Sequence record: CP113993.1
Strand: one strand, 5' to 3'
Length of the DNA stretch: 64,000 bases
From: a plasmid
The translations under genes and the position numbers were made by a program. Below the pieces are notes generated by a model. The model was not told where the DNA came from. It saw nothing but the letters and a program-made list of their open reading frames with translations, and searched no databases. Shown here piece by piece: positions 10,497-28,349 of the stretch (position 1 is its first letter; the number at the start of each line of letters is the position of its first letter).

Positions 10497-12599
10497 TTAA
10501 TCATGTATCGGCTTGGGGGGGGTGTTACGGATAGCAACTACCTCTCCTTTCCTGAAGTGAATAATACGATCTACCGGATAGGTTCGCTCATTTTTATGAC
10601 TAACAATTATTTTAGTGCATTCATAATTCATAATAACATCAAATACTTTCTTTTCAGAAAAAATATCGAGATTACTGTCAGCCTCATCAAGAATAAGTAT
10701 TTTAGGTTTTTTAAATAAAGCTCGTACTATAAGTAATTTTTGCTTTTCACCTCCAGATAAAAAATCACTCATATCACCAACTTGTGTAAAATATCCTAAA
10801 GGAAGTCTTGTTATTACATCATGAATGCCGATAGCATCCGCAATCTCATAAACCTGTTCAATATTGTCGAGATTGTCATTAAATGTAATATTCTCATATA
10901 TTGTACCAGGAAACAGGGAATCTCCCTGAAGAACTGATGATGTTATTTTCCTTATAGCATGCTTACCTGTTTTTTTAATATTAACACCTCCAATAAAAAG
11001 AGAACCAGCAACAGGTTCTGTTATCCCCAGCAGTATCTTTATAAACGTACTTTTGCCACTGCCTGAATCACCAGTAAGAAGTACCGTTTCATTCTCTGAA
11101 ATGTCAATATTGATATCTACCAAAACCAGAGGTGCCAGCTTATCGTACTGATGGTAAATACCTCTTGCTGACAAACTATAGTTCTCATTTAGCTCAAAGT
11201 ACGACGCTAAACTACTTTCGTCCGTGGCGTGAACGATTTCAGAAAGTCGTGAGGACTGTATTTTTAACAGCTGTATCTTATAAATAAGATTTATGACGAT
11301 AGTTGAACGTCTGGAGAATTCTACTGAATACGCCGTGAAGGCAAAAATCATACCAATTGTCATTTCATTATTAAGGGCCAATAAAACTGCCACAAACAGT
11401 ACCAGAATATTCCTGAAACCAGAAATGAACTGATTAATATTTGTTGCTATCATAGTTATGATTTGGCTTTTAGCACTAACGGAGGCTTCATCCGTTATAA
11501 TACCATGGTACTGGTTATGTATTCTGTGCAGCCCACCATAAAGTTTGTGAGTCTGAATAAATTTAAGTGTGTTAATAAGTACACTTTGCTCCCTGGATTT
11601 TAATGCAATTGTGCTCAGTTGATTTTGTTTTATGTAAAAATAAGCTGCAAATCTAACAACGGAGTATAATACACTTGCCATAATTACTATCGCTGCCAGT
11701 TCAACGTTATATGATAATAAAATAACTGCGATAATAATTGAGCTTGTTGCATTAAGAATTAGAGTAGATAACTTATCAGAAAGATAATTTTGGATTATGT
11801 CAATTGATTTAAATCTGTACATGATATTACCAAAACCACGAGATTTAAAGAAATCAACAGGTAATCTGGTTAGCTTTGAAAATACATTACTCCTCCAATT
11901 ACTTTTAAAATAAGCTTCAAACTTAATCTTGGTTAAATCACTCATAGTTGAAATAACAAATTGAAGGACCAGCAATGCTAATGAAACAAGAAAGCAAAAA
12001 ATCAGCAGATTTTTATCATGATCAGGAATAACTTTATCAAGTATTAATTGTGAAATACGCGGCATTAGCAATGCAATAATGTCAATCAAAATAGATGCGG
12101 CTAACATTTTAAAAATAAATGGAATAAAACCAATAACTTTGCCAGTAACATCACGTATGTTTATCTTCTTTGGCTTTACAGGGGAAAAACTTTCACTTTT
12201 CTTTATCTCAACAGCTACACCTGTAAAGTATTGTTTAAGTTTGTCTTGGTCAATTCTCATACACCCCAGTGCAGGATCATTTATTTCTACACTATTCTTA
12301 TTTATTTTTGTTAGTACAACAAAATGCGAAAAATTCCAGTGCAAAATACAGGGGAGTGTCAATTTTCTAAGTTCCTCAATAGTAAGGCTATATGCTATTG
12401 CACGAAAACCATGATCATTACATGTCTCCATAAGATAGCTGACTTTTGTTCCTCCTGTCTGGGCGGAGTGATTTTTTCTTAACTCTGGCAAAGAAATACC
12501 ATATCCATAGTAATTGAAAATCATTGCCAGGCAGGCCTGCCCACATTCACTGTCTTCACTTTGAAGAATGAGTTTCACTCTCTTTATAAACATGTCCAC
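10497..12599 (-). CDS. Peptidase-C39 domain ABC exporter (PCAT; CvaB/MchF-type bacteriocin/microcin exporter), 700 aa.
   Basis: N-terminal C39 motif ...SEDSECGQACLAMIFNYYG.... Six transmembrane-like segments. Walker A LLTGDSGSGKST, signature LSGGEKQKL, Walker B ILILDEADSNLD. The 700-aa size matches CvaB. Confidence 0.9.
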   Translation of the reverse strand: MDMFIKRVKLILQSEDSECGQACLAMIFNYYGYGISLPELRKNHSAQTGGTKVSYLMETCNDHGFRAIAYSLTIEELRKLTLPCILHWNFSHFVVLTKINKNSVEINDPALGCMRIDQDKLKQYFTGVAVEIKKSESFSPVKPKKINIRDVTGKVIGFIPFIFKMLAASILIDIIALLMPRISQLILDKVIPDHDKNLLIFCFLVSLALLVLQFVISTMSDLTKIKFEAYFKSNWRSNVFSKLTRLPVDFFKSRGFGNIMYRFKSIDIIQNYLSDKLSTLILNATSSIIIAVILLSYNVELAAIVIMASVLYSVVRFAAYFYIKQNQLSTIALKSREQSVLINTLKFIQTHKLYGGLHRIHNQYHGIITDEASVSAKSQIITMIATNINQFISGFRNILVLFVAVLLALNNEMTIGMIFAFTAYSVEFSRRSTIVINLIYKIQLLKIQSSRLSEIVHATDESSLASYFELNENYSLSARGIYHQYDKLAPLVLVDINIDISENETVLLTGDSGSGKSTFIKILLGITEPVAGSLFIGGVNIKKTGKHAIRKITSSVLQGDSLFPGTIYENITFNDNLDNIEQVYEIADAIGIHDVITRLPLGYFTQVGDMSDFLSGGEKQKLLIVRALFKKPKILILDEADSNLDIFSEKKVFDVIMNYECTKIIVSHKNERTYPVDRIIHFRKGEVVAIRNTPPKPIHD

Positions 12600-12601
12600 C
12601 T

Positions 12602-13891
12602 CTACTTATTATCCTTAAAAAACTTAATTAATGGCTCAAGTAACCAAGTTATAAGCATTTTTCTGTCAAGAAGGATGTCAGCATGCACATGACTTCCTGA
12701 TGGTATTAAGTATAAATGTTGAGCATATACTACATCATTGCTGTCTGGCTGAATGGTGATTCGGTACATGGGTGAGCTGTATTTAAGACCATAACTTGAC
12801 TCTATTACACTGGGGTCTATCGGATACCTGCCAATATCCTTAATAATCCCTTGATAAACACCATATTTCTGAAATGGATAGCTATCATATTTTAAGGTCA
12901 CTCTTCCTCCACAAGTAACATCGGCTATAGATGAGCTATCCAGAAAGAGGTAAACAACCATTTCTCGTGTGTCAGGTATAATTGTTAAGATTTTTTCATG
13001 TGGAGAAACACTATCGCCATTCGTTTTAGTCAGGCCGGATACATATCCCTCCACAGGGGAAGTAATTACGTAGTACTGACTGTCAGACTCTGCACTTATT
13101 TTCTGGTTTAAATCATAAATTTGTTTTTTATATTGAGTCTGAGTCTGATTATAATCATCATATATTTTTAACTTTTTATTCAAAAGCAATAATATACTTT
13201 GCTCCTCTTCATTAATATTTTTTTTATAGTTTTCAGCCTGAATGGCAAGGTTAAAGTGATTTCTTGCTATATTATTCACCTCCATATCAGAAACAGCCCC
13301 CCCTGGATGTAATTTAATTATTTTATCATAAAACGGTTTTTCACGACGGATTTCATTCTCTGTTAATAAAAGAGTTCTTTCCAAAATAACAAGAGACTCC
13401 CGCCTCTTATTAAGCTCTTTATCAAGAATTAAAAGTTGTTCTTTTGTTGATTTATACTTAGACGATAACTCCTTCTCCAGGGCTTTTTTCTCTTTATTAA
13501 GTAACCCGATACCAATCTCTGTATACTGAATCCCAGAACTGTCTTTCATTACAGAGTTAATTGAAAATAATGCCTGATCTTTGTGTACATAGTCACCGTG
13601 GTGTACGTTAAGATTACTGATAACGCCCCCAGAAGCGGCATTTACTGTGGCCACTCCTTTTAATGGTATCGTAACACCAGTGACACTTACTCTTTCGGTG
13701 TACTTTAGCGTCATCATTATAAAAATGATTAGCAAGCATATTATTGCACACACAACAAACGCTACATGTGTTGATGGAACAGAAACCGGAGATATCGATT
13801 GTTGTTTATTTTTATACGCAACCGCCTCTTCCCTAAAAATACCCTTATACACTTGTAAATTCCTCATCATACTTGTAGCTTTTTGTTTCAT
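12602..13891 (-). CDS. HlyD-family membrane fusion protein (CvaA/MchE-like accessory protein of the PCAT exporter), 429 aa.
   Basis: An N-terminal TM helix is followed by a long coiled-coil region (KEKKALEKELSSKYKSTKEQLLILDKELNKRRESL...) and a C-terminal beta domain. Its stop is 3 nt from the ABC gene start, so the two are translationally coupled. Confidence 0.85.
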   Translation of the reverse strand: MKQKATSMMRNLQVYKGIFREEAVAYKNKQQSISPVSVPSTHVAFVVCAIICLLIIFIMMTLKYTERVSVTGVTIPLKGVATVNAASGGVISNLNVHHGDYVHKDQALFSINSVMKDSSGIQYTEIGIGLLNKEKKALEKELSSKYKSTKEQLLILDKELNKRRESLVILERTLLLTENEIRREKPFYDKIIKLHPGGAVSDMEVNNIARNHFNLAIQAENYKKNINEEEQSILLLLNKKLKIYDDYNQTQTQYKKQIYDLNQKISAESDSQYYVITSPVEGYVSGLTKTNGDSVSPHEKILTIIPDTREMVVYLFLDSSSIADVTCGGRVTLKYDSYPFQKYGVYQGIIKDIGRYPIDPSVIESSYGLKYSSPMYRITIQPDSNDVVYAQHLYLIPSGSHVHADILLDRKMLITWLLEPLIKFFKDNK

Positions 13892-13974
13892 TTATACATT
13901 AAAAATAATTATGCATTCGAACTAAACGTTAAGCTATTTTAAAAGCTCAAATAGTACAAATGGAGTCGATATAT

Positions 13975-14535
13975 ATGAAAAAATTAACCTCAATGGAATT
14001 AGATTTAATTGCAGGATCTGGTATCGGTCTTGGTGAAGCACTGGAAGATGTTGCTGAAGCAATTATTGAAATTGCACATGGCGGAGATGGTGGCGTAGCT
14101 CTTGGAGAAGCCTTGGATCATGCTCCAGCTGAACATGTAACTCACTCAGGAGTCACACATGATAAAGACATTTTAAATATTGACATGATATCTGCGAATA
14201 TGGATATGCATGATATTCTTTTCCATCACGGCAATTCAGTGGGTTTGCAGAAAGATTTGAATGCCCTTACTTCAGATCAACGTGTTCATTATGATGTTCA
14301 TCTGGGAGGATATCTGGCTGGCCCAGGAACATTATTTCATGATGATGTCCAGATAAAAAGAGACCCTGAAGTTTTAAATATTGATACTTATTCTGCAAAC
14401 CTTGATCGCAGCGAAATTTTATCCGGACATGCAACACCATCTGATCAGACTGACATTAATCAACTGGTTCATGATCACAGAACTCATTATGATGTCAAGG
14501 AGGGTAAATTTGTTGCCGGGCCTGGAGAAAGATAA
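13975..14535 (+). CDS. Secreted protein with a double-glycine (class II microcin-type) leader, 186 aa. The mature part is His/Asp/Gly-rich and acidic, with an internal ~57-aa tandem duplication. It is a candidate novel PCAT cargo or bacteriocin.
   Basis: The leader MKKLTSMELDLIAGSG aligns position-by-position with the ColV leader MRTLTLNELDSVSGG. A GGAG Shine-Dalgarno lies 9 nt upstream of the ATG at 13975 (the ORF track starts 15 nt earlier at 13960). Internal repeats: DILNIDMISANMDMHDILFHHGNSVGLQKDLNALTSDQRVHYDVHLGGYLAGPG versus EVLNIDTYSANLDRSEILSGHATPSDQTDINQLVHDHRTHYDVKEGKFVAGPG. The gene is divergent from the MFP/ABC pair with a 68-bp gap at 13892-13959. Confidence 0.65.
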   Translation: MKKLTSMELDLIAGSGIGLGEALEDVAEAIIEIAHGGDGGVALGEALDHAPAEHVTHSGVTHDKDILNIDMISANMDMHDILFHHGNSVGLQKDLNALTSDQRVHYDVHLGGYLAGPGTLFHDDVQIKRDPEVLNIDTYSANLDRSEILSGHATPSDQTDINQLVHDHRTHYDVKEGKFVAGPGER

Positions 14536-14564
14536 TAGTCGTATAAAATAAAGTAGTTTTAGTT

Positions 14565-14597
14565 AAAACTGACATTCACGAATGTCAGTTTTTCTTC
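14565..14597 (+). terminator. Rho-independent terminator downstream of the double-glycine-leader protein gene.
   Basis: Perfect 12-bp stem aaaactgacatt / aatgtcagtttt with loop cacg, followed by tcttc. Confidence 0.6.
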
Positions 14598-14969
14598 ATA
14601 ACGTGTGCCTTCCCGGATGTGAAAATCATTATGCAGGCGAGTATAAAAGTATTTAAATACCATATAGATCATTAAACTTACAGTGAAAAATAATAAGGTG
14701 CGCCTCAGGTAAATAGAAAAAACTTTGCATGCAATGACAACCAGCCTTAATAAAATAGCCGCTTCTACTCTGACCATCTGATATACTTTTACTGGTGATA
14801 GCCACTGAATGTATACGTGACACCAACAATAAATACCGGTACATATTTACTCTGTACACTTTCAGAATCAGTATACGCTCTTTATGAAACCGAAAAATAT
14901 AACCGTAAAAGATATGAAAGAATTTTTACGGGACATAAGTCTCATAATTTATTTGTTAAAGGGCTCCTT

Positions 14970-15689
14970 TCAGATGACATTCTTCAGAGAAGAATCATCC
15001 GATAAGCTTATTGCTGTCCGTTGCAATTCATCACGCAGACAAATCCCTCTATATAATGCCACACGTGAGGGTGGCATATCCAACCCCTTCATGGCCTGCC
15101 TCCAGTACAGACTGACCGCATTTTCACTGAGCCGCCATTGTCTTGCAACAGAAGTACCGGAAAGACCTGTAGAGAGTAAAACTAACAGCGCATATTTTTC
15201 TATGGACACGCCAACAGGCAGCTGATGCCACATATACTGCTTTAGCGTCAACAACAGTTTCTCAGAACCAGCCGCTCCCACAGGAAATCGGCACGCTACG
15301 CTGTCCGTTTTCCTGAAGCGATACCATGCTTCAGGTTCACCACTCAAATGCTCTCCAGGCTGAATAAGTGGCGTAAGCCTATCCCGCTGTAGATAATCTG
15401 TCAGCCTGAAATATTGCATGACACACCGGTCTGTAAAATATAATCGATCCACTACAATCAGCACTTTCCGGCTCGTCAGCCAGGGCTGCAGATGATAAAA
15501 TAAAAAAACATGCTCATGGGGACGCAGACATAAAACCAGCCCAGCGTCAGGGTATCGGGATAAAAACACTATCAGCTCAGTAATATTACTGCACAGCGTG
15601 GTATCGATGCCAGTGTATCGGTTCTGGATTATGGCTATTACAGCCCTGCAGTCTGCCCAGAAATCGCCATAAATAATAATGTGTTTCAT
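14970..15689 (-). CDS. Regulator with an N-terminal receiver-like domain and a C-terminal LuxR/GerE-type HTH, 239 aa.
   Basis: C-terminus ...YALLVLLSTGLSGTSVARQWRLSENAVSLYWRQAMKGL... is LuxR-type HTH-like. N-terminus MKHIIIYGDFWADCRAVIAII... is CheY-fold-like. The gene overlaps the start of CaiF-like paralog 2 by 4 nt. Confidence 0.4.
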   Translation of the reverse strand: MKHIIIYGDFWADCRAVIAIIQNRYTGIDTTLCSNITELIVFLSRYPDAGLVLCLRPHEHVFLFYHLQPWLTSRKVLIVVDRLYFTDRCVMQYFRLTDYLQRDRLTPLIQPGEHLSGEPEAWYRFRKTDSVACRFPVGAAGSEKLLLTLKQYMWHQLPVGVSIEKYALLVLLSTGLSGTSVARQWRLSENAVSLYWRQAMKGLDMPPSRVALYRGICLRDELQRTAISLSDDSSLKNVI

Positions 15690-16111
15690 GCTTTCACCTT
15701 TCTGGATTTAACCGGCCATAGTTCCCTCAGCAATACCCTCTCCTCGTGCGATGCATTTCCAACCTGGTGCCGTCTGTTTCCTGCGATACGTACAAAAGAA
15801 CGGTATTTTTGTGAAGATGATTGCGGCAGGCGGACATTAATAATCCGAACCTCATAGCAGGTTGTCAGCGAACCTTCACTTCGGGTCTTACGGATTTCAC
15901 TATCAATAATATGCTTTTTATTCATAAGATATGACAGCTGAAACGAGGCCTTCCTGTCACTCAGTTTAAAAGCTCTGGCAATATCATTCCTGTTCACCCA
16001 TGTATTTCTGTGAAGACACCATAAAGCTACGATGATAAAAAATGGCCAGTTAGCATAGATCTCCATACCCTCCGGGAGATAACGTCCCTCGTGATTATTT
16101 TGTTTTGTCAT
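15686..16111 (-). CDS. CaiF/GrlA-like winged-helix transcriptional regulator (paralog 2), 141 aa.
   Basis: ...FFIIVALWCLHRNTWVNRNDIARAFKLSDRKASFQLSYLMNKKHIIDSEIRK... is a paralog of 6059-6496. Confidence 0.45.
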   Translation of the reverse strand: MTKQNNHEGRYLPEGMEIYANWPFFIIVALWCLHRNTWVNRNDIARAFKLSDRKASFQLSYLMNKKHIIDSEIRKTRSEGSLTTCYEVRIINVRLPQSSSQKYRSFVRIAGNRRHQVGNASHEERVLLRELWPVKSRKVKA

Positions 16112-16736
16112 ATTATTCTCTTATCATCAGTCAGTCACTTATTTATCTGTTTCCGGTCAGCTGAATTACATGCTAACGTTAATTAACAATACCGGGACGA
16201 TACATTGATATGTACAGGCTCCAGAATGAATTAATATGAAACATCTGTTTAAACTATAAATCAAGACTAATAAAACTACAGTGGCATAATATCTGTAGTC
16301 AACTGTCTCCCATTAAAAATGTATGACCTCTTTTCCTGAGTCATTACAACGTTATTATTTCCACATATTATTCCACAGCGATAACTAATCTTTCATTTGT
16401 CCTCCTCTCCGGGGAGAGACCGGACTACTGACCAGGCATCTTTTTTCTCTTTTTAAGATTAGCCATTGTACTGCCGTGACTGTTTGACTATTTTAACCTG
16501 CACTATAAAATTTCCTGCCATAAAAAAGGATACGCATCCATGCCTCCGGCAGACCCGTTCCGACAGGATCATGAAGAATATGTCTCAACAGGTATACTCA
16601 GTAAAAGGTCATAATAACCGGTATAGTTCACTGCTAATTATTGGTAATAATATACCCTATGCCTTACATTTATTTCAGTTGCCTTCCGAGAACTTACTCT
16701 TAAAGTAACCCCCACTTATTTCGTTCTCCCGGAAAT

Positions 16737-16820
16737 ATTCTCAACAAAATCAAGACTAGGGTTAGGAGATTCAAAAGTTGAAGTGAAAATATCTTATCAT
16801 GACGATAAAAAAAACAAGCC
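16737..16820. repeat. Conserved ~85-bp intergenic element, copy B.
   Basis: See copy A. It lies ~630 bp upstream of the minus-strand CaiF-like paralog 2 start, and copy A lies ~520 bp upstream of the minus-strand gene at 6625-7038. Confidence 0.7.
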
Positions 16821-17689
16821 ACATTTATTTATGTTTATATCCAACAAAAAAACAACAAAAAACACACATATATGAAATGTTTTCAGGACACTTTATGACA
16901 GAGACTCAACCTCTTGGGTAAACTAAAAAATAGATAAAAAACAACAAAATACATATAATCCAGCACAACCAGACGGTACGACTATCAGTCGGATAAGGGA
17001 ATGACGATCAGACAAGTACGGAGGTTTCTTTTATTAAGAAAGGAGAGAATAATATATTACTTATAATTAAAAGTTATAAATTTATAACTTTTAAAACTTA
17101 TTCGGTATCGAAAGAAAGACTCACCGCTTAGGAGATCTGGCGATGACAATAATACTGTCCGATTATTACTGGTTATTCTGACCGTTTTTATCAGGGCCCG
17201 TCATTCAGGGCAGGGGTTTACGGCGCGGTTTTCCGACTAACTTGGTGTTTGCTGCCCGATATATTGCCGAATGTCTGAACGACTCGTCGTGTTGACATAC
17301 AGTCTTTATAAATGGCTCCGAGATATTAAGCCTGATAACACGGGACAGCAGACACAGGGTTTACTGGATGCCAGAACAGAAATCCTGAGGCTAAAAGCAT
17401 AGCTTAAACGCACTGAGGAAGAACGGGATATTCTGAAAAAGGCAGCGCGATACTTTGCAAGGGAGCCCGACTGAAGTATCGCTTTATTAACGATCACCGT
17501 AAAATCTGGTCGCTCGTTACAATGTGTCGGGTTCTCAGGGTTCCCCGGGCCGGATTTGATGTCTGGCTCCAATACGCTGAATCTTCCGGAGAAAAGGATA
17601 ACCAGCGGCTGCTGGAGCTCATCCGTGGTTCCTGGTCACTGAGTGGAGAAGTTTACGGTTATCGCTAATCGCGTGCAGCGTGAATTTAC

Positions 17690-18535
17690 CAATTTGCGCG
17701 TAAAGCCTCACCCAATGCGGGCAGGGATATAAGCGCGGTAACTGCGTAACATTTTTTGCCCCTCGTCAATATGTCTTGTAAATTTTTGCGTATTTTTAAG
17801 CCATGAAACGCGCATATAAATACAGATTCTATCCAACACCCAATCAGGTTGAATTTCGTGTCCTGCCTTTGTGAATCTGAGCCTGCATCACTGCCGGTCA
17901 CCACTAAAACGGTCGGCACTGATGTGGGTTTAAAAAATTTGTTCGTCACCGATACCGGATTCAAAACAGGCAATCCCCGCCACACCGCTAAATATGCGAA
18001 GCGACTGGCATTGTTACAGCGCCGTTTGAGCAGGACACAAAAAGGCTCAAAAAACCGCGCCAGAGGCCGCTTAAAGGTGGCCCGGCTCCACGCAAAAATT
18101 GCCGGCTGCCGGATGGACAACCGGCACAGGTTGTCCCGCAAACGGATTAACGGGAACCAGGTTGTTTGCGTCGAATCCCTTAAGGTGAAAAACATGTTCC
18201 GCAACCAGAATCTGTCCAAAGCGATAGCAGACGCGAGCCGGGGTGAACGGGTCGCCAGCTACAGTACAAAGGCGAACGGGCGGGGCGCAGCGTGGTCGCA
18301 ATCGACCAGTTTTTCCCGTCTTCCAGACGCTGTGGTTGTTGCGGCTTCACCATGAAGAAAATGCCTCCTGATGTTCGTAACCGGACTTGTCCTGAGTGTG
18401 GAGAAGCCCATGATGGTGACATTAATGCTGCCAGAAATATCAACGCTGTCGGGCTGGCAGTGTGAGCCCACGGAGAGCCTGTAAATCCTGAATCGCATAA
18501 AGCGGCTTAGGTTCGGCTTCGTGAAGTGGGGATCC
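17690..18535 (+). mobile_element. IS200/IS605-family tnpB-only element remnant (copy 1) nested in IS3 orfB. It has a left-end structured region and an internally deleted tnpB.
   Basis: The left end at 17690-17808 (tttgcgcgtaaagcctcacccaatgcgggcagggatataagcgcggtaactgcgtaacatttttt...) is ~85% identical to 29512-29630. The tnpB spans 17809-18466. Confidence 0.6.
17809..18466 (+). pseudogene. tnpB: tnpB (IS605 OrfB family) remnant with an internal deletion and frameshifts.
   Basis: Starts MKRAYKYRFYPTPNQVEF, jumps to ...DVGLKNLFVTDTGFKTGNPRHTAKYAKRLALLQRRLSRTQKGSKNRARGRLKVARLHAKIAGC.... After a frameshift it continues ...FFPSSRRCGCCGFTMKKMPPDVRNRTCPECGEAHDGDINAARNI (C-terminal zinc finger). Confidence 0.65.
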
Positions 18536-18606
18536 CCGCCCTTCAGGGCGAGGAGCAGTCAATGTTGTGAAGCCCAATCAGGTGTGGGTAACCGATATTA
18601 TCTACA

Positions 18607-20851
18607 GTATACCCGGAGTTCGGGGCAGGTATGGAGGTTCAAATGAACCACGAGTCTGTCTGGTATATTGAACCGGTAACTCATGACGAGCGACCCGACA
18701 ATCCCACCGGGTATGACGGTGGTGAACCTGAACGGCAGCATGCCCGCAGGGTAATGTAACCCGCTGACAACGGGGATTGAGACGAGATCACTAAGCCGGG
18801 ATGATCCTCAGGCTTAATCACCGAAAGGCTGAAAAACATGCCCCCGTTAATCCGGCACTGTGGCTTGTAAACGTCACCACGACCTACGTGATCTGAAGAA
18901 GGAACAGGTAGCGATACGTATGCTCTGACAGTCGAAGGTGTTCTGACATGTAAGCAACACACCGGGGCAGCAACATCCATCGCATTCGGGCTGCTGACTT
19001 CTGCCAACCTGCAGCAAGCAAGACAAAGAGTGCGACGGGCAGTCTCCTCAGTATGTCTGAGTCCAGACAGGTAAAGCGGGCAAGGTCAGCGAGGGATGTT
19101 AAGGGGGGCATGGCACCGATGACGCGCTGGCTGGCGGAGCTTCCGTAGTAGCCCGCGATGGGGAAAGCCCATTACATGGCGAAGGGAAGCAGTTTAAATG
19201 TACCTGCAACGTGAATTAACTGACTCAATGAGGTGAAGGCCTTTGATAATCAGCGAAATGCAACGCAAGCCTGACACATGGGCAGCAACCGATCCGTCCC
19301 GACGGACCGAACGGCTGCGGCGTCTGATGACACGACCAGAATGGCTGGCTGAAGCGGCGCGGCTCATCCTTTCATCAAAAGGAGCACATACTCCCGGCGT
19401 GGATGGTGTGAACAAAGCAAAGCCACAGGCCGGACTGCCTGCTGAGTTGCAAAGACCCAGAGAAAATCTTCTCCCGGGTCATTACCAGCCCCTGCCAGCC
19501 AGACGGGTTTATATCCCGAAAACAACGGCAAACTGCGACCACTGGGGATCCCGCGTTGCGGGATCGTATTGTTCAGCGGTCCATGCTGATGGCGATGGAG
19601 CCTGTCCGGGAGAGTGATTTTCATACGCTCTCGTATGGCTTCCGGCCTGAACGCAGTGTCCATCACGCGAGCCGCACGGTGAAATTACAGCTCACCGACA
19701 GTGGGGAACGCGGGGCTCCGGGTTATTGAAGGTGATCAGGTCAGCTACTTCGACACAGCTCATCACCGGCTGCTGATGAAAGCCGCCCACCGCAGGATCA
19801 GTGACACACGCCTTATGAGCCTGCTGTGGAAAAATCAGGGCCGGGCATGTTGATGCCGGTCTCTTCCGGGTGGCCAGTGAAGATGTACCACACGACGTGT
19901 TATCCCGCCTTTACTGTCGAACATCATTCTGAATGGATTCGTCATTATCTGCATAAACGTTACCTGGGCGGACAAGCCCGTAAGGATCTCTGGTACTGGA
20001 ATCACAGTATCCGGCGGGGCCGAAGTACTGCGGTCAGAGAAAACGGGTAATGGAAACCCGTTGTGGCGTACTGTCGGTATACCGATGACTTCGTGCTTAT
20101 CGTCAAAGTCACCAAAGCGCAGGCGGAAACCCTCAGAGAAGAATGCTGAAACGTATCTGAAGGCCGTCTGAAACTCAGGCTGAACATGGACAAGACCAGG
20201 ATCACCCATATTAATGCCGGTCTTATCTTTCTGGGCCACAGGATCATCCGTAAACGCGGTCGTTACGGCGGTATGCGGGTAGTCCTGGCGATCCCGAAGA
20301 AGAAAGCCAGAAACTTCCCTGCGTCACTAACGGTTTTGTTATCAGGCAATTACAGTGAAAGCAAAATCGATATGGTTGAGAGACTCAACCGGAAACTGAA
20401 AGGCTGGACCGCGTTCTATCAGTTCGTTAATTTTAAGGCCAAAGTCTTCAGTTATATCGATCGTGTCGTGTTCTGGAAACTGGCTCACTGGCTGGCCCGA
20501 AAATATCGTAAAGGTATCGCATCCCTGATGAGGTGGTGGTGTAAATCACAGAAACCGGGACAAGGTAAAACGTGGGTTTTATTTGGTGAAATCAACCACG
20601 AGAAGCTCAACGGTGAAGTACTTTATCGGTTGGTAGGACAAGGTAAGAAGCTGTTCCGCTGGCGCTTACCAGAAGGTAACCCTTACCAGAGGACAGAAGC
20701 CAGGAATACATATACATCGCGTTTCGCTGAAGTGGCAATGGTGTTCGCCAGCGTTTAAATGAAGAGCCGGATGTGCTGAAAGGTACATGTCCGGTTCGTA
20801 GAGGAGAGGCAGGGAAATAGTCCGACTACGCCCTGTCTCTTACTCTACTAC
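18607..20851 (+). mobile_element. Group II intron of ~2.2 kb inserted in IS3 orfB. Domain V lies at 20764-20797, with domain VI and a bulged A just before the 3' end. The 5' boundary is uncertain.
   Basis: The 34-nt domain V gagccggatgtgctgaaaggtacatgtccggttc is canonical. A domain VI helix gaggagaggcaggg...ccctgtctcttActc follows, with the intron ending ...ctactac. Joining the flanking sequence restores the IS3 OrfB motif DIIY|IRTWQG(W)[10 protein letters not shown]. The 5' end at 18607 (gtatac...) does not match the GUGYG consensus, so the 5' boundary may be off by tens of nucleotides. Confidence 0.6.
19243..20758 (+). pseudogene. Intron-encoded reverse transcriptase/maturase (LtrA-like) split into at least 4 frames.
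   Basis: Fragments include ...PARRVYIPK..., ...ALRDRIVQRSMLMAMEPVRESDFHTLSYGFRPERSVHHA..., ...YTDDFVLIV... (a YxDD motif) and ...RLNRKLKGWTAFYQF... (maturase/X domain). These are read from several frames. Confidence 0.65.
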
Positions 20852-21321
20852 TTCGTACCTGGCAGGGCTGATTGTATCTGGTAGTGGTTATTGATCTTTT
20901 TGCCCGTAATGTGGTGGGCCGGTCGATGAAACCAACACTCTCACGCGAGCTGGCGCTGGATACACTGCTGATGGCGGTCTGGCGGCGTAAGCCGCAGAAA
21001 ACGTCATTGTGCACAACGTAAGGCAGTCAGTATGGTAGTGATGACCGGCAACGGTCTTACCGGGCCAATAATCTGGCACCGGGCATGAGCCATCATGGTA
21101 ACTGCTGGGATACTCATTCTAATATACTTTTAAATACCCGATCGGACTGGCCCGTGCTGGGATTGGCTCAGATGCTTTTGTACTGACCTGTCGTCCAATT
21201 CTGGTATTTCCCTGCTATATCCGGGCACAGCGTTTGTGACCTGACAGAAACTTTGTGCTGCATCCCGAGAGTCCTGTTCTGGAATAGGGATGGTTGTGCT
21301 ACCAGTAATTTGGAGGTAAAC

Positions 21322-21600
21322 CATGCAAAATGACGTTCAATCTTCTGAAATCGTTATTCTGGGGGTAGATACCCATCTTGATATTCATGTTGGTGCTGTT
21401 AGCAGCCTGACAGGAAAGTTGCTGGATACTCACGTTATTCAAACCAATCAAAATGAATAACTGGACCTGCTTGATTGGGCCCGATCTTTTGGGACTCTTG
21501 AACAAGCAGGCATCGAAGGAGCGGAACCGATGGTACTGCACTGACACGCCTTCTCATTAAGAATGGCCTTAACATTGCTTAAGTTAACCGGGCAGACTGG
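21322..21600 (+). pseudogene. IS110-family transposase N-terminal fragment (frameshifted and truncated).
   Basis: MQNDVQSSEIVILGVDTHLDIHVGAVSSLTGKLLDTHVIQTN... resembles the IS110-family N-terminus (hLGIDhhKD.H..A). Downstream fragments read ...GTDGTALTRLLIKNGLNIA.VNRAD.... Confidence 0.5.
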
Positions 21601-22240
21601 CAGGTCACAAGATGGATATCGTATTTCAGGATGTTGCTCTGGATAAAAATATCTTTCAGATCTACGGCATCAACTAAGCCAAGCAGTTTACTCTAAATTT
21701 AACTGACCAGCATACAATTAAATATGCTTACTTCAAACAATATCGTTAGCACTATTAAAAACTGGATTATTCTCTGTGCTGATTTCATTTTCGAAATACC
21801 ATTTTAAAACCAAATATTTTTTGATAGCTGTACTATATAATTTTACAGGAGTGATAGATTTATTATGAATAAAGGTTGTTAGATATGTAAAGTCATAATT
21901 TACGACGACGTTTCAGCTGAGGTCTTATTAGTTCTTACTAAGAAAAACACCCCCATGTTATTTTGATCAAGATCACAATTAATAATATACAACATTGACC
22001 TGACATATTGCATAAAATTAGAGTAATGACAATCCATTGTTAATGGTATATTTATATATAAAGTTCAGAATGTACTGATGAACAATCAAACACACAAAAA
22101 AGATTGCTAATAAAAAGATTGACCATACGAAAATTCCAAAAACTTACTTACACTGAAACCACAAGGAGATTGTACTAAATCATATAAAAGAGTATTTTTT
22201 GAATCTAAAAGTTTATTTGTTAACAACAAGGGATTATTTT

Positions 22241-22528
22241 ATGATAGTTATTAGCGAGCTAGATTGTTCATATATTAATGGTGCTGGTGGCGGGGTGAGC
22301 GAAGCTTTACATGGCGTAGCTCATGCTGTTGAAGGAGCCGCACATGTATATAATGCAGCAACTGGAGATAATGTAGGTGAAGGACTAGGTGGAAGGTGGG
22401 GGAGTGGAGGTGCAAGTGATTATTGTACAAAATATGCCACTCAAACAGATGATATGGATAAACAAATGTATGATAATTGTATGAAAAATCCTACTCGCTT
22501 TGGTTATAAAGATCCAGGTCCATGGTGA
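22241..22528 (+). CDS. Double-glycine-leader Gly/Ala-rich peptide precursor of 95 aa with two C-terminal Cys residues (class IIa microcin-like, MccV/MccL style). No exporter or immunity gene lies next to it.
   Basis: The leader MIVISELDCSYINGAGGG aligns with the leader of the 13975 protein (TSMELD-LIAGSG versus ISELDCSYINGAG). Both then continue G.G..EAL..VA.A....AH. The mature part is ...NAATGDNVGEGLGGRWGSGGASDYCTKYATQTDDMDKQMYDNCMKNP..., with two Cys that could form a disulfide as in MccV. An AAGGGA Shine-Dalgarno lies 7 nt upstream. The ORF track starts earlier, at TTG 22199. Confidence 0.55.
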   Translation: MIVISELDCSYINGAGGGVSEALHGVAHAVEGAAHVYNAATGDNVGEGLGGRWGSGGASDYCTKYATQTDDMDKQMYDNCMKNPTRFGYKDPGPW

Positions 22529-22602
22529 TAGTTTTAGGTTTATTATAGCCGAATGTGTTATTTAACAGTAACGGAAGCTTAAAAAGCCCGTTCAGCTGCG
22601 AT

Positions 22603-22640
22603 GCCAATTCATTTGTTTGAATTGGCATTTTTTATTCACA
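22603..22640 (+). terminator. Rho-independent terminator after the microcin-like gene.
   Basis: Stem gccaattca / tgaattggc with loop tttgtt, followed by attttttatt. Confidence 0.5.
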
Positions 22641-23229
22641 CTGTTTATTAAGAGTTTAAATAAATCATAGTTTACGGTATCTCATACAGTCTGTGAATAT
22701 TCAATTGATAGACAGTTAAAACAACGCACTTATCATCAATCTAAATGAAAAAAAGCAAAGTGACAGGTACTACTTGCTCCCGCCACATTACATGTATTAC
22801 TTAAAATTGAAACAATCAGGAAATTAGATAAATGAATTATTATTCATCAATATGAAGTTTATCTTAATAAACAGATATCTAGATATGAGATAGTTGATCT
22901 CTTTATAGGGAGCGCAGCGAGAATTGTACAATTATCTATTGGCAGCTATAATTACCAGATGGGCTAAACAATACCAATCATAGCGCCAATTCACAGATTT
23001 GAACGATATTTGATTGACCATGGTTCAGATTTAGTACAGTGCTAATAATATTTCCGCTGTATGTAGGTTCGTAACGATTTTATTGGCAATATAACCATCT
23101 CTTATTACTTACTCGATATTCCTGATAACTTGATCTGCATCTACTTTTTGTTAATTATACTTGTCATGATATGCAATGATCATAAGTCGTCACAGAAATA
23201 CTGTTGAGCAGACCTGGATTTCCATGTTC

Positions 23230-24279
23230 TTATTGATATGAGAATGTTATTGTTGATACAGCCTGTACGGTACCAGTCCGGATATCTCCTGTACGGATAT
23301 AATTAATTTTAAGGCTGGCCACAGGATTCAGTTCACCTCGGTATGAGGAAAATCGCCACTGATTTGTATTCCCTTTTACTGATGAATCAGGACCGAATCT
23401 TAAGGCTTCCGGGTTTCCGTCTTTGTATATCTTCAGACCAACTCCACTTGCTGTTGATGTTTTATCCAGCGAGAGCACCGGGCTCTGGTTTGCTGGCTCC
23501 GTTGCATCAGTCAGTGTCGCATAGACATCAATATTATCCTGACATTTTAACCGTAAATTAAGGTTTCCCCCGGTAATCTCTGAGCCAACTGAAGGAAACT
23601 GTTTTTTATAGACAGCAGCTAACTGAACGGTGTAGTTACTTTGTGAAAGGCTGCACGTTTTGGTTTTAACAAAGAAGTTAAAACCGTTCAGAATAATAAA
23701 CGACGTCCCCCCCAGACGGCTAACTCCACTGTTACTTGAAGTGACTGAAAAGTTTCCCACATGAACGGGGGGAACATTAACCCACCCGGGTGAAAGCCTG
23801 CCCAGTGCAATGATGCCAATCCTAATCGACGCCCCCATTCTCGGAACAAGATACCATCTGCCATTTGGAGGAATCACATCCATCAGGTTATTCCCCTTCA
23901 TCTTAACCCCTTCCCCGAATCCGCTTTCCTGACTGTCGGCTATGGTAAAAGTCACACCGATATTGGGAACGCCAATATCGTAAATGTCTTGTCCGTCATA
24001 CTGCCCAAGTACAGGGCGAGTTATTGTAGCCTGCCCCCTGAGATAATATGGCCAGCAGTAATCAAACAACACATTTTCACTGTAATAAGAACTTCTGCCA
24101 ATCTGTAATGGATAAGAAGAGGCATCAGCCGGCACGTCAAGATTATTGAACAGAATGTCCGGTCTTAAAATAAAATTTCTAGGGGTGTTATTACAGAAAC
24201 TGGCCGCTGCGACTTGCTTTGCCAGAAAAAGAAAAAAAAGCACAACAAAATAATGTGTTTTAACCTGTAAGTTCGTCAT
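23230..24279 (-). CDS. Fimbrial tip adhesin (two-domain, FimH-like position), 349 aa.
   Basis: It is the last gene of a chaperone-usher operon. It has a signal peptide (FLFLAKQVAAA) and a C-terminal pilin-like domain ending ...TITFSYQ. Confidence 0.55.
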   Translation of the reverse strand: MTNLQVKTHYFVVLFFLFLAKQVAAASFCNNTPRNFILRPDILFNNLDVPADASSYPLQIGRSSYYSENVLFDYCWPYYLRGQATITRPVLGQYDGQDIYDIGVPNIGVTFTIADSQESGFGEGVKMKGNNLMDVIPPNGRWYLVPRMGASIRIGIIALGRLSPGWVNVPPVHVGNFSVTSSNSGVSRLGGTSFIILNGFNFFVKTKTCSLSQSNYTVQLAAVYKKQFPSVGSEITGGNLNLRLKCQDNIDVYATLTDATEPANQSPVLSLDKTSTASGVGLKIYKDGNPEALRFGPDSSVKGNTNQWRFSSYRGELNPVASLKINYIRTGDIRTGTVQAVSTITFSYQ

Positions 24280-24435
24280 AATCGTCCTCTCTGTTTTTTC
24301 AGTTACGCTGTCGACTGATAATCATTTAGATACTTTTCATCTCAGCGCTCATCATTTTATTGCCCGGTACTCAAGTTTTTGTTACTGTTCAGGAAAATAT
24401 ATTAGGGCCACGTATTATTTAGGAATGTTAATAAT

Positions 24436-27018
24436 TTAGTGTCCCGAATACACTGTATGCTGTTTCTGAACAATAGTAGCATTTCTCTTTTCCGGTCTTA
24501 TACAGCGCACGGGTTGTATGGTAGCTACAGGATTATTCGCCTGATGTTTTGCAACAATGTGGTAAGAAAAGGTACAGTTATCGGTAATATAGCTTCCCCA
24601 TACTACCTTTATATTTCCTTTATCCTTCAGCCCACGGGCAAAAAGTCTTCCTCCCTGAACAACATACCCAACGGATTTCCCCTGAGTATCAAAAGCTTCC
24701 GATGCCATAGGAGGAGTACTTCCGTCTGACATTCGTATATCAAACAACACAGCTTCACCTGACTGCGTGGTGAAATTCACCAGCGTCGCACTGTTTGCCC
24801 GCGGAATAATTTCCTGTTCTGTCGCTGACAGCTCAACATTCAGCGGCAACGCTTCGGGATCGATACTGACCGCATTTTTTTCATAAGGTGTGACGGATGG
24901 CACAATACCGTTACCCCAACGATCAATACGGTTTCCTGGAGAATTATTAATCGTTGCCCCACGGGCACCTTCTGCATGAATAATCGCGAATGTATCACTC
25001 AGTTCGTTACTCAGGGTAAGCCCAAATGGATGGACCACCACAGCACCGGATACACCAAACGAAGACTGGCGATGATTGAGACTGTCATTACCAGCAGTTG
25101 CGGTTAAATAAGCATAAGGCGAACGGTAACCGGCACTGGCTGAATATCCGGTACCACCTTTTTCCATCGTGCTGGCAGAAAGGCCATATGAAAACTGATT
25201 GTCTTCCCCGGTGACACCACTGACCGAGGTTTGCAAACTGTTCCCGTCTCCTCTGCTGTAATTCAGCGTAGTGGATAACAGCGAACTCTGAGGGCTTTCG
25301 CCCAGTGGAACGGAGAAATTCGCATAAATACGACGATCATCGCGCAACTTGTCCGTGTCAAATGACCGGGAATAACCCACCTGATAGTTCAAACGCCGGT
25401 ATACGTTACTGTACCCTGCCTGATATTCGCTACGGGTCCCTTTGCGAGTCCAGTAGCTGTACGTTGTTCCCGTCAGGTAAAGATTACCCCAACCAGTTCC
25501 CAGCTCCTGGTTAACGGAAATCTGAAACTGATTTCTGGGACGCCAGAGCATTATATTTCCGGTCTGACTGTTCCCGGAATAATCTCCCCGGCTGGTCCAC
25601 ATGGCATCACGCAGATTATAGAAATCTTTCGACATATACCGGTAGGCAGCCAGTGTCAAACTGGTACTTATTGATGGCACCATAACACTGTAACTGGTGT
25701 GCAAGCTGTATCCTTTCCGTGTAATGTCATCACCGGGTAATATTGTCCTGGAAAATGTTACGTCAGTGGCTATAGCACCCAGTGGAGTATTAAATGCCAC
25801 ACCGGCCAGGCTGGCAGCATAACGGGGCGCTGTCGTCAGCCCGGTATTTACCGTAACATCATTCACTAACCCGTACTGCAGGGTCCCCTGAAAAACGATA
25901 TCATCCAAGGTATTGTCTGCATAACGGTATCGACCGGATGATATCTGATACCGGATATACCCGGGCCGGACAAGTTGCGCCACAGAAGCAAACGGGACGG
26001 TGAACAGGCGAGTCTGTCCATCTGCTTCTGTAATGATAACCGTCAGGTCTCCCCCATATCCGGAAGGATAGAGATCGCTGACAGTAAATGGCCCTGCCGG
26101 AACGGTTGTTTCATAAATGATATTACCATTCTGTCTGATGGTTACTTTTGCATTACTACTGGCTACCCCATGCACTACCGGCGCATAGCCTCTCAGGGAA
26201 CCCGGTAACATCCTGTCATCAGATGCCAGTTTCATGCCACGGAGGCTAATGTTCTCCATCAGCTCCCCTCCGGTACTGAAGTCCCCCGCCGTCAGCTGCC
26301 CTCTCAGTGCGGCCACATCATGCTGGATACTGGTTTCTGTACTTCGGTAACCACCGGCGGACCAGTTTCCCCTGTGCCGTAACGCAAATCCTTCTACATT
26401 CAGCCCTGCACGGATCCCCAAGTAAGTCTTATCTTCCTGTGTACCGGCTACCCGGTAACGGTAATTATTCAGGTTATAGTTAACAAACGCGGCAGGTACA
26501 CCCGTCTGCCACTGTGCCGGTGAAATATATCCTCGGGGACGGTGGATGAGCAGCGCCTGTGGGAGGTCGATATTCAGACGCAGTTCCGATGGTATAAACC
26601 GTGTTCTGGCTGCCGGTAAGGCAGAAGAAATATCAGTACAACCACTAATTTTTCTCATTACTTCTTTTTTTAGCACTTCTTCGTTCAAGTCCAGTAATGA
26701 TAACAGCTCAGGTGTCAGGCAAAGTACGGTCCGGTCCATGTCAACTGATGCCTGAAAATACAATACCGTTCTTCCTTTCCATTCTCCGTTAAGCCAGATA
26801 TCAGAATAGTATTCACCTGCCGGAACCGGCTCTCCATGACTGAATTTTTTCACATCAATGACACTTTCTCCGGGAATATGTTGTAAAAATGCCGGATTAA
26901 ATTCAGCGTCTGTTGCCGCCTGTATGTTACGGGCCATCAGGCCAAACAATATACTGAAATATAATAGTAGCGATGACCTGCCTGCCATTGTCCTTTGTGC
27001 CTGGCATTTCTTTTTCAC
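24436..27018 (-). CDS. Fimbrial outer-membrane usher (FimD/PapC family), 860 aa.
   Basis: Its size and sequence are typical of ushers, and it sits between the chaperone and adhesin genes. Confidence 0.85.
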   Translation of the reverse strand: MKKKCQAQRTMAGRSSLLLYFSILFGLMARNIQAATDAEFNPAFLQHIPGESVIDVKKFSHGEPVPAGEYYSDIWLNGEWKGRTVLYFQASVDMDRTVLCLTPELLSLLDLNEEVLKKEVMRKISGCTDISSALPAARTRFIPSELRLNIDLPQALLIHRPRGYISPAQWQTGVPAAFVNYNLNNYRYRVAGTQEDKTYLGIRAGLNVEGFALRHRGNWSAGGYRSTETSIQHDVAALRGQLTAGDFSTGGELMENISLRGMKLASDDRMLPGSLRGYAPVVHGVASSNAKVTIRQNGNIIYETTVPAGPFTVSDLYPSGYGGDLTVIITEADGQTRLFTVPFASVAQLVRPGYIRYQISSGRYRYADNTLDDIVFQGTLQYGLVNDVTVNTGLTTAPRYAASLAGVAFNTPLGAIATDVTFSRTILPGDDITRKGYSLHTSYSVMVPSISTSLTLAAYRYMSKDFYNLRDAMWTSRGDYSGNSQTGNIMLWRPRNQFQISVNQELGTGWGNLYLTGTTYSYWTRKGTRSEYQAGYSNVYRRLNYQVGYSRSFDTDKLRDDRRIYANFSVPLGESPQSSLLSTTLNYSRGDGNSLQTSVSGVTGEDNQFSYGLSASTMEKGGTGYSASAGYRSPYAYLTATAGNDSLNHRQSSFGVSGAVVVHPFGLTLSNELSDTFAIIHAEGARGATINNSPGNRIDRWGNGIVPSVTPYEKNAVSIDPEALPLNVELSATEQEIIPRANSATLVNFTTQSGEAVLFDIRMSDGSTPPMASEAFDTQGKSVGYVVQGGRLFARGLKDKGNIKVVWGSYITDNCTFSYHIVAKHQANNPVATIQPVRCIRPEKRNATIVQKQHTVYSGH

Positions 27019-27028
27019 TGTTCACCCT

Positions 27029-27760
27029 TTACTGAATTGATGACCTGCCTTCTTCATCACCACCATAATCATTAATGACAGTCCAGATGACACTGCTGCC
27101 CTGGGCATTTTTTCCCGGTGAGACAAATTCTTTGAAGGAATATGGTGAGACCATACCTGGATGACTGAATGACAACATATCCTGCCCGGTCTTCAGCAAA
27201 ATTTTTCGGTATGTAATGAAATAGGGCGTCTGGTTGTCGGCCCTGAGAAGAATCCGACCCTCTTTGTGTATCAGTGACCATTTGACCTGCCTGCGTGCAT
27301 CAGCCGGAGACTGACTTAATGTATCAGGCCGAAAAAAAAGCTTAATTCGGCTGCGGACAGCAAGCTGAAGATAATTTATATGACCGCCATCGGTTTCACT
27401 TTCTTCAGTTTCGGGTCTGGAAGGGATATCGAGTACATTCAGATAAAACACCGACTCCCTGTCCCGGGGGAGGGGTTCCCCGGTATACATAATCCTTAAA
27501 GTTTGCCCTGTGCCCGCCTCCACTCTGGAAACCGGGGGAGTGATAATAAAAGGAACTTTGACAGAATCAGGGGGACTGTATGCATTACCGGTATCAAGCC
27601 ATGCCTGAACTAACGACGGTGAGTTTTCTCCATTATGGAGCTGAACATTAATACTTTTTTTCTGCTCAGGATATATCACCCGTGTCCCCATAATAACAAC
27701 GCTGGCACTGGCAGAAAAAGATATCAATGCTGATATAATAAAAAGTATCAATCCGGGCAT
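27029..27760 (-). CDS. Periplasmic fimbrial chaperone (PapD/FimC family).
   Basis: From the internal start, MPGLILFIISALISFSASASVVIMGTRVIYPEQKKSINVQLHN... matches the PapD-like chaperone N-terminal motif. Confidence 0.8.
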   Translation of the reverse strand: MPGLILFIISALISFSASASVVIMGTRVIYPEQKKSINVQLHNGENSPSLVQAWLDTGNAYSPPDSVKVPFIITPPVSRVEAGTGQTLRIMYTGEPLPRDRESVFYLNVLDIPSRPETEESETDGGHINYLQLAVRSRIKLFFRPDTLSQSPADARRQVKWSLIHKEGRILLRADNQTPYFITYRKILLKTGQDMLSFSHPGMVSPYSFKEFVSPGKNAQGSSVIWTVINDYGGDEEGRSSIQ

Positions 27761-27812
27761 GATAACCTCGGTTAAGGCAAAAAACAGATCTCTGCATGAC
27801 GCACATAAATAA

Positions 27813-28349
27813 TTATTCGTATGCAATCGTGTAGTTCACAGTAGCAGCAACATCTCCGGCTGTTGCTGCCCCTGTTGCATAGTATCTCGCGTTGTAGCGC
27901 AACTTGATATCTGAAGTGTCAATTCGGGTCGCAACGGTATTCTGAGAGGCCACATCCTTACCCAATACAACAGGAGTGCTTCCATCCGCATTTAATAACT
28001 GGACCTGCACATTTTTTGCAGTACCGGTATTCGTCAGATTCCCGGTATTAAAATCTGTCGTGGCGTTTGGTTCAAAATAAGCTTTAACATTTTGGCCACC
28101 GGAAGAAGCCCCGGCATCACATCCATTTAGCTCAATAATAAACGGCGTTAATGCTGCAGTCTTGGCAGTAGTGTCCAGTAATGCTTTTGAAACCGCAGGT
28201 AATGTCACGGTCATATTTTTACTACCGGTAGTGACTGAGCAGGTCTGGTCCAGTATTTTACCCACAAAGTTAATTGTACCATCATAGGCCTGAACTCCGC
28301 CTGAAAACGCAAGGGACAGCATACCAGTTGCGACAAAAATATTTTTCAT
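27813..28349 (-). CDS. Major fimbrial subunit (FimA-like pilin), ~178 aa.
   Basis: MKNIFVATGMLSLAFSGGVQAYDGTINFVGKILDQTCSV... with a C-terminal ...NYTIAYE beta-strand motif. Confidence 0.8.
   Translation of the reverse strand: MKNIFVATGMLSLAFSGGVQAYDGTINFVGKILDQTCSVTTGSKNMTVTLPAVSKALLDTTAKTAALTPFIIELNGCDAGASSGGQNVKAYFEPNATTDFNTGNLTNTGTAKNVQVQLLNADGSTPVVLGKDVASQNTVATRIDTSDIKLRYNARYYATGAATAGDVAATVNYTIAYE

Follow-up and report, generated by a model that had tools for sequence, protein, structure and literature searches.

A 64,000-nucleotide stretch of plasmid DNA (record CP113993.1; the window, throughout) carries on its + strand a 95-codon gene (22241-22528) that we read, with a probability of roughly 0.55, as encoding the precursor of a class IIa-type microcin-like peptide: a peptide with a new core family, exported by a C39-peptidase ABC transporter (PCAT), displaced from its native exporter and plausibly secreted by the one resident on the same plasmid, with an antibacterial function that its class would imply. 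A preliminary description of this DNA had pictured the gene as an orphan with its own Shine-Dalgarno sequence (SD) and terminator. Over 100 Salmonella enterica plasmids, about 170-330 kb in size, IncFIB and mostly conjugative, match the 1-kb stretch around the gene at 99-100% identity, among them pN55391 of serovar Infantis; this near identity identifies the window as part of a pESI-like IncFIB megaplasmid of Salmonella Infantis. Megablast of the same region against complete E. coli genomes gave no match.

A peptide family and its exporter clade

The gene and its signals are laid out as follows:

22199..22240, + strand: TTG extension of 14 codons, the RefSeq start (WP_139142174.1, 109 residues), judged untranslated
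22228..22233, + strand: SD AAGGGA, 7 nt 5' of the ATG; an SD lies at equal distance in 10/10 loci compared
22241..22528, + strand: precursor gene, 95 codons plus stop, recognised from its open reading frame (ORF), homologues and purifying selection; the exact 95-residue protein is in UniProt as uncharacterized
22241..22285, + strand: leader MIVISELDCSYINGA, 15 codons, predicted cut after Gly14-Ala15 from alignment with the family and with microcin leaders
22286..22525, + strand: predicted mature peptide, 80 residues, 8371 Da, pI 5.0, with Cys62 and Cys80 (precursor numbering)
22600..22638, + strand: intrinsic terminator with a 12-bp stem, a 6-nt loop and a T-run, from a terminator scan and folding energy

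Searches of 5.8 billion proteins, together with a profile search of 1.84 billion representatives, place the peptide by sequence in a rare, Salmonella-centred and previously unnamed family. Its members comprise four full-length Salmonella relatives (57-77% identity by alignment) and three more distant ones (39-57%); with the window's peptide these make eight sequences, all of 95-99 residues, which have 15 invariant columns, both Cys included. The window peptide keeps all family-invariant residues and fits the family signature, a leader ending ...[IV][SN]G[AT] before G-x-G..., then H-V-x-N/D-A-x-x-G, two Cys and a C-terminal [NK]P...[GW]G[YF]K. The Gly/Ala/His-rich N-terminal half is conserved, and leaders of 15-16 residues end at a …SGA/GGG junction (the slash marks the predicted cut). 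The profile search of the representatives added three further small relatives only, its larger matches being spurious (one of them, P0013, is a WD40-type repeat protein and was rejected), and among the GTDB species-representative genomes there were pattern matches, none of them a true relative.

Away from the window, family members recur beside one kind of exporter. In metagenome contigs (P0003) an AraC-type regulator, a 424-residue adaptor, a 696-residue C39-PCAT and, after a 210-bp gap, the peptide gene lie on one strand; in P0006, 780 bp separate the adaptor and PCAT genes from the peptide gene downstream of them. On a 5.3-Mb chromosome (P0008), a row of three genes for double-glycine (GG) leader peptides of 69, 63 and 98 residues diverges from the adaptor and PCAT genes. 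Plasmid CP074645.1 carries a native-type exporter with an MccN-like peptide of 57 residues, and a family member 8 kb away beside a CaiF/GrlA-type regulator. These four family-linked exporters form one clade, their PCATs being 68-89% and their adaptors 64-88% identical. This recurrent linkage to one adaptor/PCAT clade in four lineages is the main evidence that the peptide family is, as far as gene neighbourhoods tell, PCAT exporter cargo. An all-versus-all BLAST of flanking small ORFs from 14 loci found only the gene itself and its out-of-frame shadows in common.

These loci hold further peptides. The three-gene array of P0008 lies at 7491-8297 in locus L022 and at 3995-4801 in L023. A copy of its 69-residue Gly-rich peptide, 85% identical, is found 5' of the exporter in the P0006 loci (L015-L017, 3420-3617), and the leader and N-terminus of this peptide resemble the 95-residue family (36-41% over 58 residues). 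The 57-residue GG-leader peptide of CP074645.1, MRELDNKELNIVGGAGDPLTDPNSQIMRQIMAGAAQIPVNVPIPKVPMGPTWNGSKG (L026 7563-7736, - strand), is encoded about 470 bp downstream of the PCAT gene and looks like a form of MccN that has lost an internal part. At its C-terminal end it agrees with the MccN sequence printed in the cinful supplement. The 90%-identity protein cluster that contains the 95-residue peptide also lists N-terminal fragments of the pESI PCAT, about 120-255 residues long; kinship of these C39 fragments with the peptide was rejected as a clustering artefact, the fragments being unrelated N-terminal PCAT pieces. A decayed copy of this exporter lineage on a chromosome is hinted at by one incomplete fragment of 237 residues, which comes from a 4.4-Mb contig of S. 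enterica subsp. houtenae.

The gene itself has the parts claimed for it. The ORF translates into the proposed 95-residue product (MIVISELDCSYINGAGGGVSEALHGV...GYKDPGPW), its SD lies 7 nt before the ATG, and a hairpin at 22600-22629 followed by TTTTTTATT (folding energy -22.7 kcal/mol, z = -3.7) is essentially the terminator that had been placed at 22603-22640, and the sole terminator-like site across 21600-23300. A frame of this length is unlikely to arise by chance, since only about 0.09 ORFs of at least 95 codons are expected in this stretch of 27-33% GC. Pairwise dN/dS of the mature part is 0.07-0.27 across the family (dS saturated), by which measure the mature part is under purifying selection; the leader evolves much faster than the core. 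DNA homology between lineages runs from about the cleavage site to the stop codon, with neither flank conserved. In all relatives the start Met aligns with ATG 22241, and each has an AGGA/GAGG-type SD. Taken together, these sequence comparisons show a coding gene that starts at ATG 22241; the preliminary description had allowed that the true start might instead be the TTG at 22199, which would bury the leader in a longer N-terminus, and this did not turn out to be the case.

The leader is of the double-glycine type, as had been proposed. Its 15 residues include G-A at positions -2/-1, an Ile or Val at -4 and an Ile or Leu at -12, and the MccH47, MccL and MccV leaders, in the sequences given by the cinful supplement, can be aligned with it in register. 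Moreover, MIVISELDCSYINGA satisfies the published double-glycine Motif 2 (<M...[KEQI]x[IL]x9G[GAS]), taken with the class II microcin definition from PMC9746304 and PMC12219008. The 109-residue form fails this motif, and start-anchored signal screens would miss that form because RefSeq's over-long start hides the leader.

The predicted mature peptide, at 8371 Da, is below the 10-kDa limit of class II microcins, and its size and composition are within the range of verified IIa microcins. It is hydrophilic (grand average of hydropathy, GRAVY, -0.71), with 30% Gly+Ala, three His and two Cys; the latter are the C-terminal Cys-X17-Cys pair seen earlier, Cys62 and Cys80 with 17 residues between them. 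AlphaFold2, run on the eight-sequence alignment, gave a mean pLDDT of 50, only residues ~58-90 reaching ~71, as a helix-loop-helix that holds both Cys. Such a model is compatible with, but no proof of, the disulfide that probably links Cys62 and Cys80 across this C-terminal part. Given the poor model, and as Foldseek found no match to it in the PDB, we draw no conclusion from the fold.

The resident exporter and its candidate 186-residue cargo

An exporter is encoded in the window on the other side of a gap from the peptide gene, next to a second GG-leader gene and two overlapping genes, for a regulator and a putative regulator:

10497..12599, - strand: C39-peptidase ABC transporter (PCAT), 700 residues, intact (Pfam C39, ABC_membrane, ABC_tran)
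12602..13891, - strand: HlyD-type membrane fusion protein (adaptor), 429 residues (Pfam)
13975..14535, + strand: 186-residue double-glycine-leader protein, constant partner of the resident exporter lineage; no Pfam match
14970-15689, - strand: putative regulator, 239 residues, overlapping the CaiF/GrlA-family gene
15686-16111, - strand: CaiF/GrlA-family regulator, from annotation (within 14970..16111)

The preliminary description had assigned the whole of 10497-13891 to a PCAT; the exporter is indeed there, but the span divides into the PCAT (10497-12599) and the HlyD-type adaptor (12602-13891). The distance of about 8 kb that it gave agrees with the 8.35 kb measured from adaptor start to peptide start. 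The PCAT has the triad Cys19/His92/Asp108 with CvaB spacing. Thus, as for class II microcins, a C39-PCAT with its triad and a membrane fusion partner are found on the same plasmid, though non-adjacent and of a non-native clade. The outer-membrane channel TolC is chromosomal and generally present in Salmonella.

Close relatives of the resident PCAT are only two Salmonella PCATs, at 54-56% identity, and a divergent gene for a protein of 186-188 residues is the invariant exporter neighbour in all three lineages. The leader of this protein is MKKLTSMELDLIAGS, followed after the cut by GIGLGEAL (...AGA/GVGVGEAL in its relatives), after which the sequence runs on into two His/Asp-rich repeats of ~55 residues (…LNIDxxSANxDxxxI…HYDVxxGxxxAGPG). 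It is Salmonella-restricted and, as a candidate PCAT cargo, unusually large. When the 186-residue and 95-residue families were compared by hhalign, they matched with a probability of 91.6% (E = 8e-7) over 35 columns, which take in the leader plus the 20 residues that open the mature part (G-x-G-x-G-[ED]-A-[LI]...A-H). Both families are confined to Salmonella and carry no annotation. The two proteins are therefore homologous over leader plus 20 mature residues; in contrast, they are unrelated beyond residue 35, where the repeats of the 186-residue protein have no Cys, and the 186-residue protein always adjoins the pESI-type exporter whereas the 95-residue family is natively tied to the other clade. 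Because its own cargo shares this leader and N-terminal module, the resident exporter is the most likely way out for the 95-residue peptide, which on sequence grounds is plausible as a second cargo.

A pair distantly related to these two genes flanks the family member in CP074645.1. A CaiF/GrlA-family gene with an overlapping gene for ~240-250 residues recurs beside both exporter lineages or family members (L024 9821-11084; 42% and 27% identity), and the two may regulate these loci.

In the mechanism that we propose, translation would start at ATG 22241, and the C39 peptidase domain would recognise the 15-residue leader and cut after Gly14-Ala15. The 80-residue, 8.4-kDa, acidic and hydrophilic product would then exit via PCAT, adaptor and TolC, and would carry a single Cys62-Cys80 disulfide across its C-terminal helix-loop-helix. 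pESI lacks the native adaptor/PCAT clade, and the gene lies there on the border of another PCAT island, one restricted to Salmonella; export would pass through the resident exporter at 10497-13891. The likeliest role would be narrow-spectrum antagonism of related enterobacteria. Leader cleavage, export by the resident PCAT, the disulfide and the antibacterial activity are the steps that we infer.

A more ambitious picture, which we consider rather improbable as a whole, is a modular and polymorphic cargo system. Here the shared leader and ~20-residue module would direct export, and perhaps uptake, of interchangeable C-terminal effectors, in one cargo a helical hairpin stapled by a disulfide and in the other a tandem repeat rich in His and Asp; both cargos would leave through one Salmonella-restricted PCAT under CaiF/GrlA-type control, as a competitive weapon for the S. 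Infantis clone that has emerged globally, without a dedicated immunity gene.

Plasmid setting and competing explanations

The gap between exporter and peptide gene contains fragments of an IS605 OrfB, a group II intron maturase and an rve (integrase-core) gene, in keeping with the insertion sequence (IS) debris described there earlier. Window 10149-28555 has a collinear counterpart, 93-99% identical, in plasmid pSAbAus of serovar Abortusovis, and both plasmids have the order exporter, 186-residue gene, regulator, peptide and fimbrial operon. Two insertions, 17494-17948 and the larger one below, are pESI-specific and account for ~3.5 kb of the gap:

18525..21544, no strand: pESI-specific insertion, absent from pSAbAus, with the group II intron maturase and rve fragments

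It follows from the collinearity that the link between the peptide gene and the exporter island predates pESI, and that the gap was once ~3.5 kb shorter. The peptide gene is thus an orphan insofar as no exporter is adjacent, but it belongs to an exporter-to-fimbriae block held in common with pSAbAus. The maturase-domain fragment (20186-20758) lies inside the larger insertion, and the IS605 OrfB fragment (17849-18355) straddles the edge of the smaller. Base composition is a mosaic, ~33% GC around the ORF and 34-38% in the exporter region. Elsewhere, window 2092-3123 holds a 303-bp tandem repeat (3.4 copies, 99% identity) that reads on the + strand as back-to-back 100-residue ORFs (2012-3229), possibly an opposite-strand gene for a large repetitive surface protein, and 4172-4248 holds a short 9/18/36-bp tandem repeat of CCACCATTG type (~8 copies) inside a stretch of 52% GC.

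A number of observations weigh against a displaced but working microcin. Identity between the resident exporter and the family's native clade is just 33% for the PCAT and 22% for the adaptor, the PCAT being about as distant from that clade as from CvaB; the resident exporter is, by these comparisons, a Salmonella-restricted lineage distinct from the native one. Neither of the two other exporters of the resident lineage has a 95-residue family gene beside it. In PMC12219008 leaders were swapped to obtain good secretion via a foreign PCAT, and for that reason cross-export by the resident PCAT is not guaranteed. Between the window and pSAbAus, the mature part differs by five nonsynonymous changes and one synonymous, and four of the five arose on the pESI side and lead away from the family consensus (GGGLGEAL to GGGVSEAL; CRN to CTK). 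The exporter genes of pSAbAus appear fragmented in its annotation, beside an intact peptide gene. Within +/-1.3 kb of the gene there is no immunity candidate, hydrophobic ORFs there having just 22-29 residues and no SD, and when the candidate immunity ORFs and co-cargo peptides of the exporter-linked loci were searched against the window by tblastn, no match fell below E = 0.18. The product is hydrophilic and acidic, a difference from class IIa microcins taken as a class, and no membrane-like hydrophobic stretch was found in the mature peptide, unlike in pore-forming microcins. Finally, the searchable literature on pESI microcins or bacteriocins contains nothing on this locus.

A rival reading is that the gene is an intact but dead passenger, moved by IS elements from its native exporter and immunity gene, unexpressed or unsecreted, and persisting only as pESI is a young clonal plasmid. 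The window has no exporter of the native clade, which fits such a relic, as do the lack of an immunity candidate, the confinement of DNA homology to the ORF (as for a cassette moved among IS) and the IS and intron debris upstream. The window leader is without the basic residue usual at positions 2-3, promoter-like matches 5' of the gene are weak only, and the Salmonella relatives P0001, P0002 and P0004 are stranded in the same way, with IS elements, toxin-antitoxin genes and fimbrial operons around them. The recent 5:1 excess of nonsynonymous changes can be counted in its favour too, although it fits relaxed or diversifying selection alike. On the other side, ORF, SD and terminator are intact with all family-invariant residues kept, the same gene is intact in pSAbAus (94.7% identity), and an intact PCAT and adaptor with a related cargo leader are on the same plasmid. 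At least four separate stranded lineages also retain full-length ORFs that show strong purifying selection when compared with one another, which would be difficult to account for were stranding the same as loss of function. We judge a relic rather unlikely. Separation of the peptide from its own exporter by inversion was also considered and rejected, as the pESI exporter belongs to a different lineage.

The window copy does, on the searches made, stand without its native exporter and without a recognisable immunity gene; the preliminary description had likewise seen neither exporter nor immunity gene adjacent, and the adjacent cognate immunity gene of class II microcins was not found in the window. 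One explanation is that none is needed: the peptide could be secreted through a PCAT and, without being bactericidal, serve in signalling, in the matrix or adhesion, or towards the host. The hydrophilic, acidic product with no transmembrane-like segment is in line with this, no immunity gene lies near any stranded copy, and the family recurs beside CaiF/GrlA-type regulators and fimbrial operons. Microcins are also reported to promote biofilm in Acinetobacter (PMC13188072). The exporter-linked loci argue otherwise, having plausible transmembrane ORFs just 3' of the peptide gene: in L005 (P0003 locus, 7846-8028) one of 60 residues with one strong transmembrane segment and an SD, and in L016 (P0006 locus, 8685-8945) one of 86 residues with two transmembrane segments, the two not being homologous to each other. 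In addition, these loci also hold microcin-like cargo (the Gly-rich peptide of 66-69 residues and the MccN-like peptide), and hydrophilic Cys-containing microcins exist, for example MccPDI. On balance a non-bactericidal role seems to us distinctly unlikely.

In pSAbAus a 2.85-kb segment between the peptide gene and the fimbrial operon (L025 9479-12537) is flanked by direct repeats of 105 bp that are 94% identical, and contains an IS3 as well as a gene of the Ivy lysozyme-inhibitor family truncated at its 5' end; pESI has one copy of the 105-bp repeat (window 22718-22822). The Ivy-family gene was rejected as an immunity factor because it is found in pSAbAus only, is 5'-truncated by IS3 and lies between the repeats.

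It is hardly credible that the product is a 109-residue cytoplasmic hypothetical protein read from TTG 22199, with the 'leader' internal: PGAP does annotate the 330-nt form and the upstream frame is open in pESI and pSAbAus, but 7/10 loci compared have no in-frame upstream start codon, which, with the SD before a conserved Met in all lineages, marks the RefSeq form as an over-extension, no SD precedes the TTG, both pSAbAus differences in the extension are nonsynonymous, and the 95-residue form is deposited as well as the 109-residue one (under names that are only 'hypothetical' or 'uncharacterized').

We thus prefer the displaced, PCAT-exported microcin-like precursor. pESI is a megaplasmid linked to the worldwide emergence of multidrug-resistant Salmonella Infantis in poultry, and is known to carry resistance genes, fimbriae and yersiniabactin as fitness factors; the searchable literature describes no secreted antagonistic peptide on it. 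If the peptide is exported and active, perhaps with the 186-residue cargo, interbacterial competition would join the traits that may explain the success of pESI, and the class II microcins would gain a new core family. With the large and diverse set of putative members of this class catalogued in 2022-2025, a new core family is unsurprising in itself, and a merely stranded relic would be an ordinary finding. The points of note are an epidemiologically important plasmid, an annotation error that hides the gene, and a module shared with a second, larger cargo.

Relation to known microcins

The peptide had no match in Pfam-A or NCBIfam at E<=10, and a sequence profile search of the PDB returned noise only. 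Profiles were then compared with a set of six microcin sequences (MccV, MccL, MccPDI, MccH47, MccM and an E492-like sequence). The full-length profile aligned over the leader and a weak following stretch with bit scores <=7; the mature-core profile scored <=1 bit (MccV -0.3, MccL 0.0). Homology to the C-terminal region of MccV and MccL (...PEG[IL]P..EAWNYA.GR.CNWSPNNLSDVCL) was not found in the peptide. A specific relationship to MccV or MccL, whose architecture the preliminary description had seen echoed here, is therefore not supported: with such core scores and a hydrophilic peptide, the resemblance is by sequence a generic one of size, Gly/Ala content and Cys pair, and not one of homology.

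The peptide also meets Motif 2 and the size limit of the signal-sequence screen of Enterobacteriaceae in PMC12219008 (Nat Commun 2025). Since the 95-residue form and P0002 are in UniProt/UniRef, where A0A637TRV8 (UniProt) and UPI000BE447AF (UniRef) are entries for the family, and fit that motif, family members may figure among the putative class II microcins of that study. None of the searchable full texts contains the motif HVYNAATG, and neither do the cinful supplements.

The best of the weak profile matches is to MccH47. Its leader, MREITESQLRYISGA followed by GG, has the same length and the same ...ISGA/GG junction as the family (in P0001, MKKINDKDCVYISGA followed by GGG), and the similarity stops a few residues past the cleavage site. 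MccH47 belongs to class IIb, with a Ser-rich tail for siderophore attachment, and this tail is absent from the 95-residue peptide. With a C-terminus (...RFGYKDPGPW) that is not Ser-rich, the peptide is not of class IIb, and there are no siderophore-attachment genes among its annotated neighbours.

From class IIa (MccV, MccL, MccN, MccPDI, MccS) the peptide differs, besides its hydropathy, in having no core similarity to the microcins tested and no adjacent immunity gene, and in an exporter that is 8.35 kb off and of another lineage. Its assignment as a class IIa-type precursor, that is, of an unmodified class II peptide, nevertheless agrees with the leader motif, the 8.4-kDa size and the two conserved Cys. 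Like the members of class IIa, it has a 15-residue leader with a predicted G-A cleavage site, a size below 10 kDa, about 30% Gly+Ala, two Cys that suggest one disulfide, and a family linkage to an adaptor and a C39-PCAT.

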